Shown: positions 2,220 to 4,568 of the stretch, one piece after another
Layout: the number at the start of each line of letters is the position of its first letter
Position numbering within the stretch: position 1 is the stretch's first letter
Assembly: GCA_017464685.1 (NCBI GenBank)
Contig: JAFTYO010000004.1
Span: 1,306-65,305, forward strand
Direction of reading: 5' to 3'
Source of the DNA: Alphaproteobacteria bacterium
GTDB taxonomy: Bacteria; Pseudomonadota; Alphaproteobacteria; RF32; CAG-239
Length of the DNA: 64,000 bases
The notes under the pieces: generated by a model
Told to the model about the DNA's origin: nothing
Seen by the model: the letters and a program-made list of their open reading frames with translations, nothing else
Databases searched by the model: none
Program-made: the position numbers and the translations under genes

Positions 2220-4568
2220 ATGGGAAACGACAATAATCAAGAGCTGGTTAAACAAGTAAACGCACGGCTTAATACTAAAAACGAAGAGATGGACACACTT
2301 AATAAGGCACATAAAAAACAGGCTATGTTTATCATGCATGGCACTCATATGTCTCCTGAAGAATTTGCCCGAGTTTGCGGTAGTTTTAATATTCTTCCCG
2401 CTTTTGAAAAGCACACTCAAAACGAACTTGACATCATTAAAGAATTTAAAGATACATTATCCGATGATGATATCAAAAAACTTAATATATTCAAAAGGGT
2501 TTTCGGAATTGAGGCCAAAAAAGACCAAAACGGCAATGTTGTTTCTGACAAAGATAACACCCCTGTCCCACAAGACGGCTCATATGCATATTCGTTAAAA
2601 AAATGTTCTGCTGCCATTTGTTTCACCGAAAACGGTGCACCCGTGTTAATCGGTTATGAAAAAGCATATTCAGATTATGAAACAGAAAGAAAAAACGGCT
2701 ATATATATTGTCTTGACGGCAAAAATTTCAAACCCGAATATGATAAAGACGGTAACACATTTGAATGGACATCACTAAAAGATGAAAATGTATTAAATGT
2801 TACAACCACTACACCTGATATAGCCATGGACCATAATGTTCAATTTGTCATATTTAAATCCGAGCACGATTTAGATAAAGCCTTTAAACGAGACAAGGAC
2901 AAACCATTTGAAAACATATTAACCTCCGATTCCGATATTGCCAAATCTTTAAGCAATGCCATATCTTCGGGCAAAGCCACATATATCAATGCAAGCTCCA
3001 GAGGTCACAATCCGCAAATAGATTTTCTTACCAAAGCACAATGCGTCTGCGATATAAAGCAACAACAATTTGAAGAACAGTTTGTAAATTATGCAAAAAT
3101 CTATGAAGAGTTGATTATGCCTGAAATTAAAAACATATCCATGCAAGCAAACAACCGAAGCACACATGGTATTGGGCATACTGAAATGGTAGGTTTAAGA
3201 GCAATTGACTATGCATTGCATTTAAACAAAAATCCGCTACCTGTTATGATAGCTGCCGGTTTGCACGACTGTGCTCGCCAAAACGACAACCAAGAAAGTG
3301 ACCATGCTCACAATGCCGAACCGATTACTCGTGAATTTATTAAAAATTGGAATCAAAAATATCCGCAATATAATATTGATGAACAAACAACCGAACACAT
3401 AGTGTTTAGTATAACAAATCATACCGACGGTAAAGTAAACCCGAACAATAATTATATTTCACAATGTTTATGGGATGCCGACCGAACCAGACTTTCTTGG
3501 CAATCAAGATTTAGACCTCAATATTTGAGCACTCAAAGAGCCTTAACCGTAGCATCTTACCCGATTGTTGAGCAAGAAAAATATATTGCCGGTATAGAAA
3601 AATTGTTAAAAACAAATAATATTAAAATGTGTTTTGATAAATTGCAACGCCCCGATTGGCAAACATCTGTTTGTTACACAAAAAATAATCAAATTTTTAT
3701 TGAGGCTATAAGCGATTATACCTTTAAAAGAAATCAGACCGCATTAGATAATTCCGCACTTGTGCAAAATTGTGATAATTCGTATTTGAAAGAAATTTTA
3801 CCGCAATGTAAATCTTTTAATAATAAAATCATATATTATGAAATACCCGACGGAAAAAACTATCCGAGAAACTTTGAAACGGATTCTCTTTCCGACAAAA
3901 AGAAACAACAATTGGCCCAAGAACTTGGCACTTTTTTAGCTCATATTCATAATATGTCGCCCGATGGTTTTAAACAAGTTGAATATCCCGATTATGAATA
4001 CACAGTCCCAAACTATGAAGAAAAAAACAAACAAATATTAAGTGAGTTAGGGGTCACATTTCCACCTAAACCCACGCAAAATAAAACCTGTGTTACTTAC
4101 TCAAACACTGATTTTAATCAATTTTATTTTAAGGAAAACGAAAATAAACTTACCTTGTGTGGAGCAAACGGAGTTCAAGAAATGGGCATTGGCGATGCTT
4201 CTAAAGATTTTTTATCTCTTTATATGAAGTTTGGGCGAGAATTTACGACAAATATGCTCGAAAGCTACAATAAAACAGCTAAAACACCGATGTCAATCGA
4301 AACCATAGATTATCATGTAGTCAATACCGCCGCTCATATGTATGAAAAAAACAAAGATAATAAATTTGGTGAAAAATTAAAAAATATACTCTTAGATTAT
4401 GAGAAAAACAAACAACTCACCGACAAATCAAACACTAAAATGCAAGATAAAAGTAAGGTGCTAAATTTAAGAGGTATACAAACATCTTCAACAACAAACA
4501 CACCAATCAGAAAAACCAATATCAACCAAAGCGGATTATTAAAAAGGGGTGATATGAACAGAAATTAA
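2220..4568 (+). CDS. Large multidomain protein: unknown N-terminal region, central HD-domain phosphohydrolase, C-terminal aminoglycoside/choline-kinase-like (APH-fold) domain with non-canonical catalytic residues
   Basis: RBS aaggag lies 8 nt upstream of the ATG. HD signature: HGIGH (res 316-320), AAGLHDCAR (HD dyad at nt 3264-3269), DHAH and LWDADR (res 418-422). Kinase-like signature: FLAHIHNM, NTDFNQFYF and GIGDASKDF (res ~570-665). The C-terminal tail is basic and Ser/Thr/Asn-rich. Confidence 0.7.
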   Translation: MGNDNNQELVKQVNARLNTKNEEMDTLNKAHKKQAMFIMHGTHMSPEEFARVCGSFNILPAFEKHTQNELDIIKEFKDTLSDDDIKKLNIFKRVFGIEAKKDQNGNVVSDKDNTPVPQDGSYAYSLKKCSAAICFTENGAPVLIGYEKAYSDYETERKNGYIYCLDGKNFKPEYDKDGNTFEWTSLKDENVLNVTTTTPDIAMDHNVQFVIFKSEHDLDKAFKRDKDKPFENILTSDSDIAKSLSNAISSGKATYINASSRGHNPQIDFLTKAQCVCDIKQQQFEEQFVNYAKIYEELIMPEIKNISMQANNRSTHGIGHTEMVGLRAIDYALHLNKNPLPVMIAAGLHDCARQNDNQESDHAHNAEPITREFIKNWNQKYPQYNIDEQTTEHIVFSITNHTDGKVNPNNNYISQCLWDADRTRLSWQSRFRPQYLSTQRALTVASYPIVEQEKYIAGIEKLLKTNNIKMCFDKLQRPDWQTSVCYTKNNQIFIEAISDYTFKRNQTALDNSALVQNCDNSYLKEILPQCKSFNNKIIYYEIPDGKNYPRNFETDSLSDKKKQQLAQELGTFLAHIHNMSPDGFKQVEYPDYEYTVPNYEEKNKQILSELGVTFPPKPTQNKTCVTYSNTDFNQFYFKENENKLTLCGANGVQEMGIGDASKDFLSLYMKFGREFTTNMLESYNKTAKTPMSIETIDYHVVNTAAHMYEKNKDNKFGEKLKNILLDYEKNKQLTDKSNTKMQDKSKVLNLRGIQTSSTTNTPIRKTNINQSGLLKRGDMNRN

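Follow-up and report, generated by a model that had tools for sequence, protein, structure and literature searches.

What does a bacterium use a protein for that joins a complete HD phosphohydrolase signature to a kinase-like domain whose catalytic residues have been replaced? This question is raised by a gene in a 64,000-nucleotide stretch of contig JAFTYO010000004.1 (assembly GCA_017464685.1, an uncultured alphaproteobacterium of the lineage RF32; CAG-239), referred to below, at its full length, as the window. The assembly comprises 1.38 Mb, is ~85 % complete and has a G+C content of roughly 30-40 %; the window lies on its contig C25, and the gene is found there as a 100 % match (G000:C25:3525-5870). 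Public database records name the product "HD domain-containing protein". We describe it as a fusion of three modules and a tail, an architecture that is established with high confidence. Its kinase-like part is most likely a conserved pseudokinase, and the whole is tentatively read as a modular HD hydrolase-pseudokinase that may be cargo of a type IV secretion system (T4SS). The gene and its parts are as follows.

2220..4568, plus strand: the whole gene, 782 codons plus stop, with an ATG start
2208..2213, plus strand: Shine-Dalgarno sequence AAGGAG, read from the sequence, 6 nucleotides before the ATG
2220..3089, plus strand: N-module (residues 1-290), in which a long helix at the N-terminus precedes an alpha/beta core
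3090..3629, plus strand: putative classical HD phosphohydrolase domain (residues 291-470), assigned by homology, with invariant ligands
3642..4424, plus strand: predicted APH(2'')-like pseudokinase domain (residues ~475-735), assigned by profile homology, with the hallmark residues replaced
4425..4565, plus strand: polar, basic C-terminal tail (residues 736-782), a candidate secretion signal

The first point to settle is whether the fusion is real. Twelve cluster members (NCBI, JGI, ENA and Logan) hold this protein or one at least 90 % identical to it, it is complete in four gut-metagenome runs, and the gene is found in metagenomes of animal gut and faeces. Orthologous fusions are present in two further genomes of the family, one of the same genus (G014, 92 % identity) and one more distant (G045, 40 % identity). 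An assembly chimera is ruled out by these independent database entries, orthologues and metagenome runs. The distribution of the three-module fusion is very patchy, with three carriers among 201 family genomes, and an exhaustive search of 1.84 billion representatives yielded 140 matches, none of which held two of the modules in one protein.

The HD domain is the best conserved part of the protein (51.4 % identity to the G045 orthologue) and has the lowest ratio of nonsynonymous to synonymous substitutions (dN/dS 0.044 against the G014 orthologue). The initial annotation, which was made from the letters of the window and had placed the open reading frame exactly, described the HD signature as complete, and its motifs are correct to the residue: HGIGH (residues 316-320), AAGLHDCAR (345-353, with the HD dyad at nucleotides 3264-3269), DHAH (361-364) and LWDADR (417-422). 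The inferred metal ligands are H320 (or H316), H349-D350, H401 and D420 (or D418), and these are invariant in the alignment of homologues (A1). Four of the five members of A1 match PF01966 (best 1.8e-5), and the gathering score of this family is exceeded by further homologues (L011 with 36.5 bits against a cut-off of 22, and P0104 with 40.2 bits). Searched against the PDB, the HD alignment profile found E. coli YedJ (3gw7) and BH1327 (2o08) with marginal E-values (0.045-0.11) and with the H…H, HD, H and D positions in register. The subfamily comprised about 100 clusters in the exhaustive search, and its representatives occur alone (~170-250 residues) or fused to an alpha/beta-hydrolase, a radical SAM domain, a glycosyltransferase or regions without a known family. 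As judged from its sequence, we conclude that this is a classical metal-dependent HD phosphohydrolase domain with intact catalytic residues.

Behind the HD domain lies the region that had been likened to an aminoglycoside/choline kinase (APH) fold, and this assignment has been strengthened. Whole-genome searches in the family returned stand-alone proteins of 280-370 residues and a fusion with an S41 peptidase that match residues ~484-750, with E-values down to 1e-29. Pfam APH (PF01636) was found above its gathering score in 7/7 non-fusion homologues tested and also in the peptidase fusion (L017). A profile with the window domain as its first row (A3) matched the structures of APH(2'')-IIa, -Id and -Ia with E = 3.7e-19 over positions 15-251, covering both lobes, and the window sequence alone matched APH(2'')-Id in the PDB with E = 7e-4 over residues 557-685. 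When the kinase-like piece was used by itself in a word-index search for homologues, nothing was returned; the whole-genome and exhaustive searches supplied its relatives. A single-sequence structure model of residues 470-782 was unusable (predicted local distance difference test, pLDDT, 37.7). A lack of profile support for the HD domain or for the kinase-like domain would have counted against the initial annotation; the searches gave such support for both.

The non-fusion relatives look like active enzymes. In a MAFFT alignment they all keep a G-x-G-x-x-S-like loop, the [IV]R[VIF]P of strand 3, the [KR]E[AS] of helix C, the catalytic loop [CS]HNDxHGGN and the motif G[VAI][FI]D[LF]G. All three fusion orthologues are without the HxDxxxxN motif, the DxG aspartate, the strand-3 basic residue, the helix-C glutamate and the glycine loop, and read instead:

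window and G014: strand 3 FIEAIS; helix C ALDNSA; catalytic loop SNTDFNQFY; DxG motif GANGVQ
G045 orthologue: strand 3 FCEAVT; catalytic loop CHSNMDSSK; DxG motif GVNEIG

The kinase-part motifs first read from the window (FLAHIHNM at residues 572-579, NTDFNQFY at 629-636, GAN at 648-650 and GIGDASKDF at 656-664) are exact. The claim that catalytic residues had been lost stands as a real feature, specific to the fusion lineage; it needs amending for the aspartate of the catalytic loop, which may be kept, because its placement hinges on a one-residue gap (the phmmer alignment keeps D, whereas MAFFT places T). The two fusion lineages have replaced these residues in different ways, as expected if constraint on a dead active site has been relaxed. 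A tree of the kinase domains, to which the long-branch warning applies, groups those of the fusion proteins in a single clade (support 100/99); their branches are long, and their sister group consists of kinases of another genus that look active. We consider it likely, on this sequence comparison, that the domain is a conserved pseudokinase derived from active APH(2'')-like small-molecule kinases.

It may be asked whether the domain is still an enzyme with a non-canonical active site, in the manner of some AMPylases and glutamylases, that cooperates with the HD domain. Atypical motifs do not prevent catalysis in SidJ (cited in PMC6941232) or in SelO. Purifying selection acts on the domain (dN/dS 0.138 against the G014 orthologue), and the blocks LAxELGxFLxHxHN, KDFxxLY..GRxF and YN..A…DY are kept between orthologous domains that are 29 % identical. 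However, all five hallmark positions are lost, with replacements that are not the same in the two lineages, and no alternative conserved cluster of acidic or histidine residues is apparent. The long branches suggest relaxed constraint, and the domain is the least conserved globular part of the protein (28.8 % identity to the G045 orthologue, against 51.4 % for the HD domain). Retained catalysis by this domain is improbable in our estimation, and a pseudokinase that probably serves as a non-catalytic binding or regulatory scaffold is preferred.

The first ~310 residues had been said to match nothing recognisable. This holds in so far as a profile of the N-module gave only noise against Pfam and PDB sequences; it fails in so far as the region is a separate, conserved module of ~290 residues, mobile and lineage-restricted, and not a linker. 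Stand-alone homologues of 300-420 residues are found in several genera, and the family comprises ~20 clusters at 50 % identity and 44 at 90 %, all of them unnamed and without Pfam domains. Close stand-alone twins (P0032 and P0171-P0173) share 64-85 % identity, and each has its own, differing tail. Two of 301 genomes in a class-wide sample carry the module, just one of them outside the family. AlphaFold2 with a 13-row alignment (A2) gave a confident model (pLDDT 91.2, predicted template-modelling score 0.86) with a 30-residue N-terminal helix and an alpha/beta core, a fold without a solved match: a Foldseek search of the PDB returned no matches at E<=1e-3, and a search of BFVD returned only unnamed viral proteins and was uninformative.

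Twelve polar residues of the N-module are invariant or nearly so (H40 in HG[TS], K64, T66, N68, E69, R93, Y122, Y124, K127, K128, E173 and E182), which suggests an enzyme-like module. The highest template-modelling (TM) scores among the best-ranked PDB matches belong to an ADP-ribosyltransferase toxin subunit, a weak likeness (TMt 0.42, probability 0.25, E = 0.7), and the H…Y…E pattern (H40, Y122/Y124 and E182) is compatible with such an activity. This is a likeness of pattern, to be taken as a lead and not as a finding; no PARP- or DT-type structures were among the PDB matches in Foldseek, and no ADP-ribosyltransferase family of Pfam or sequence of the PDB was matched even at E<=10.

Stand-alone N-module genes were also inspected in their surroundings. 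In L034:5543-7372 (ENA contig k141_484291), a gene for a 361-residue N-module protein stands between two open reading frames of the ACPS family (130 and 101 residues), downstream of rpoZ-spoT, and acpS looks split or duplicated around an N-module insertion. The rpoZ-spoT-acpS neighbourhood recurs near an 85 %-identical stand-alone gene in L033. An adk-secY-pilin neighbourhood was also recorded for the stand-alone gene in L034, as for the G045 orthologue of the fusion.

All three modules are found outside the fusion, in sister genomes. Each occurs alone (N-only open reading frames of 330-420 residues, HD-only of ~312-340 and kinase-only of 280-370), and other combinations include S41 peptidase with APH, N-module with a GNAT-like domain, alpha/beta-hydrolase with HD, HD with radical SAM, and glycosyltransferase with HD. 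In one such protein (L005, genome G127, 704-708 residues), the N-module is followed by a region with sub-threshold matches to GNAT acetyltransferases. In another (L017, genome G105, 1087 residues), an S41 peptidase is joined to an APH domain that looks active and to a C-terminal region of ~300 residues without a known family. Most of the 201 family genomes searched hold just one of the three modules, a pattern of independent cargo and not of steps in one pathway; a functional coupling of the Rosetta-stone kind is unsupported for the same reason. In the window's own genome, no paralogue of any module was found. Derivation of the gene from a phage or plasmid was rejected, as tblastn gave no match to either.

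Most module proteins end in a polar, basic extension, which the compact APH relatives of ~290 residues are without. To describe it, 63 non-identical module proteins were aligned at the C-terminus and compared with 890 open reading frames of the window's own genome. Hydrophobicity in the tails peaks between positions -8 and -12 (0.57 at -9, against a background of 0.39 and flanks of ~0.15-0.25), their last 20 residues have a net charge of +2.0 (background +0.6; Mann-Whitney p = 6e-7), and 32 % of them end in arginine (background 5.5 %). The tail of the window protein has a net charge of +4 over its last 30 residues and Leu-Leu at -10/-9, and its dN/dS is 0.37 against the G014 orthologue. In addition, L016, a stand-alone APH-like kinase encoded in a different genome of the genus, ends in ~45 residues homologous, with E = 2.6e-10, to those that close a 424-residue HExxH protein of the window's own genome. 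The two proteins are unrelated, and the match suggests a portable C-terminal tag. The HExxH protein, encoded outside the window by a stop-to-stop open reading frame on G000:C1 from near 21390 (plus strand), has the metalloprotease-like motif HELIH and no Pfam match. A position matrix built from the tails was tried as a genome-wide effector predictor and proved weak, with 28 hits against 12 expected (2.3-fold) and with the window protein below the threshold.

A secretion machine that could carry such proteins is encoded in the same genome. It includes VirB4 (831 residues), two VirB2/TrbC-like pilins, VirB10 within an open reading frame of 1415 residues, and VirD4 (744 residues), the last on the window's own contig:

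G000:C39:96000-116000 (L031), C39:85181-85762 and C25:70361-72592: T4SS genes

Beside the VirB4 cluster stand a secretin and PilO-type pair of a type IVb pilus and several large open reading frames without a Pfam match. VirD4 is present in 119/120 high-quality genomes of the family and in 21/21 genera; because it is nearly universal, the T4SS appears as a core system, vertically kept in genomes of 1.2-1.9 Mb, and not as a sporadic conjugative element. No relaxase of PF03432 was found in the window's own genome, in a search that did not extend to other relaxase families. The N-terminus of the protein is hydrophilic and, in agreement with the initial annotation, which saw no signal peptide, has no signal-peptide-like stretch or Sec signal.

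With a resident T4SS, shuffled modules and common C-terminal tails, the earlier idea of a translocated effector gains support that is still circumstantial. We predict, at somewhat less than even confidence, that the protein is T4SS cargo exported via its C-terminal tail. As a mechanism we propose that the HD domain would be the catalytic warhead, or one of them, and would cleave a phosphoester or phosphoanhydride substrate, and that the pseudokinase would be a non-catalytic scaffold for binding or regulation. The basic tail, of a type common to other proteins with shuffled modules, would drive export, and the family-wide T4SS would deliver the cargo into another cell, eukaryotic or bacterial. 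Among the explanations considered, a modular HD hydrolase-pseudokinase that is likely exported in this way is the best, and we hold it tentatively.

Several observations weigh against this explanation. The gene is not beside T4SS genes: ~66 kb separate it from VirD4, with which it shares a contig, and the VirB4 cluster stands on a different one. As the relaxase search covered one family, the T4SS may be a conjugation system. The tail statistics ignore the shared ancestry of the module proteins, and the position matrix, albeit crude, gives the window tail a score of -2.6, where the 99th percentile of the null is +3.2. Both domain assignments are drawn from sequence: the window protein alone has no PF01966 match at E<=10 and falls below the Pfam APH threshold (E = 0.21), so that membership in either family comes through profiles and transitive homology. 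All dN/dS figures derive from a single orthologue pair, the window protein and that of G014. Moreover, some pseudokinases without canonical residues are still enzymes.

Some of these points would suit an enzyme that stays in the cytoplasm and serves housekeeping or metabolism. Its HD domain would act on one of the cell's own nucleotides or phosphorylated metabolites, its kinase-like domain would be a ligand-sensing regulator and its tail a disordered appendage. The gene is unlinked to T4SS genes, the window tail scores poorly in the tail matrix, and stand-alone N-module genes stand among housekeeping genes (rpoZ-spoT-acpS and adk-secY). A housekeeping role fits poorly with the patchy occurrence of both the fusion (3/201 family genomes) and the N-module (2/301 class genomes), with the shuffling of the domains among peptidase, lipase-like and GNAT-like partners, with C-terminal features common to unrelated proteins, and with the lack of a paralogue of any module in the window's own genome. 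We regard this explanation as unlikely, although it deserves serious consideration, and exported cargo is still preferred.

If the protein is exported, the recipient may be a competitor. Polymorphic toxin systems are known to include HD toxin domains, and modularity combined with a C-terminal delivery tag is reminiscent of such toxins; the protein would then be an interbacterial toxin of a bacteria-killing T4SS, with the HD domain as a nuclease or a nucleotide-depleting toxin. The XVIPCD domain of Xanthomonas T4SS toxins has ~120 residues, and the window tail is short and unlike it. No conserved immunity-like gene is adjacent: a divergent open reading frame of 185 residues upstream of the gene is retained beside the G014 orthologue and absent from the ~1.5-kb flanks fetched around the G045 gene. 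It was rejected as a conserved partner or immunity gene on this ground. A role in killing bacteria is rather improbable.

HD and kinase-like domains are also common in anti-phage defence systems, and a component of such a system was considered. Neither the protein nor its modules nor the neighbouring open reading frame had a match in PADLOC, no defence-island context was found, and searches for phage and plasmid relatives were negative. This reading was rejected for want of a PADLOC match and is very improbable.

The surroundings of the gene agree with the first description of its neighbours, an autotransporter and an open reading frame without recognisable relatives.

3-1196: pertactin/autotransporter beta-domain open reading frame, upstream neighbour of the gene
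1416..1973, minus strand: divergent open reading frame of 185 residues upstream of the gene, no Pfam match
4671..4746, plus strand: tRNA-Lys(CTT), directly 3' of the gene, followed by a hairpin and T-run

The upstream divergent intergenic region contains a C9 tract (window 1989-1997) and two direct repeats of ~22 nucleotides, each with gatc and tttaaa (2103-2197). Between the stop codon of the gene and tRNA-Lys, no terminator-like site was found. Within window 4623-4780, a promoter-like TTGCAA-17-TATAGT stands just 5' of the tRNA gene, and a strong hairpin with a T-run (gcctccctgtcagggaggctttttt) just 3' of it. Further downstream are deoC, a HAD hydrolase gene and a rodA-pbp2-mreDCB block. The 40 % orthologue (L003, genome G045) has a type IV pilin-like gene on one side and secY on the other (flanks 165-842 / 3846-5093). 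Because the window copy sits by the autotransporter and tRNA-Lys genes and the G045 copy by pilin and secY genes, the fusion gene has moved or its locus has been rearranged.

The superfamilies of the HD and APH domains are already known, whereas three features appear undescribed: the combination of the three modules, the inactivation of an APH(2'')-like kinase that goes with the fusion while its sisters nearby live on, and the N-module family. The locus offers a natural case in which an active small-molecule kinase family has apparently been turned into a conserved pseudokinase after fusion, and with active-looking sisters in neighbouring genera it may be a good system to learn what a dead APH fold is kept for. 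It also exposes a rare domain family, the N-module, with a confident model and without a relative among solved structures. More broadly, the data suggest a family of uncultured gut Alphaproteobacteria, with genomes of 1.2-1.9 Mb, that combines a core T4SS with shuffled enzyme modules bearing a common tail. If these proteins are true effectors, such gut bacteria would contact other cells directly, which would change the ecological view of the family.

Among known systems, the APH(2'') phosphotransferases (PDB 3uzr/3ham and 4dtb, the APH domain of the bifunctional AAC/APH in 4ork, and PF01636) share the bilobal kinase-like family with the window domain. Unlike them, it is without the H and N of HxDxxxxN and the other hallmarks listed above (the DxG aspartate, the strand-3 basic residue, the helix-C glutamate and the glycine loop), and it is fused behind two other domains; no role in antibiotic resistance is implied. 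For the HD part, classical phosphohydrolases (PF01966; YedJ, 3gw7; YqeK-like BH1327, 2o08) are the reference, and its H…HD…H…D pattern aligns with that of YedJ, but the window subfamily is distinct, with the motifs HG[IL][GS]HTE, AAGLHDCAR, HT.G and CLWDADR.RLSW. The closest HD relatives outside the protein's own cluster in the first homology search are three alpha/beta-hydrolase-HD proteins of 457-461 residues (P0003-P0005), whose C-terminal domain is 36-44 % identical to residues 291-469 (~180 residues). They likewise end in basic C-termini and differ in having a hydrolase domain instead of the N-module and no kinase-like domain.

A secreted system of similar composition is that of the SidE-family effectors of Legionella and their regulator SidJ, in which an ADP-ribosyltransferase, an HD-like phosphodiesterase domain and a pseudokinase-fold protein come together; according to PMC6941232, which cites the SidJ pseudokinase, the phosphodiesterase domains "resemble classical HD domains". 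The comparison is an analogy only, as no sequence homology with the window protein was detected. The SidE phosphodiesterase uses an H/E/H set, whereas the window HD domain has the classical metal-ligand set, and the likeness of the N-module to an ADP-ribosyltransferase is weak, as the fold match described above indicates. By this analogy, the protein might be a self-contained machine delivered by the family-wide T4SS. The N-module, as a new and very divergent fold of an NAD-using or other transferase, would modify a target, the HD domain would process a phosphodiester intermediate, and docking of the target, or of a host factor that activates the protein, would fall to the dead kinase. We consider this a long shot. 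If it were true, the basic tail would mark an unrecognised effector repertoire of uncultured gut Alphaproteobacteria, and unlike SidE and SidJ, the window protein would perform these tasks with all its domains in one polypeptide.

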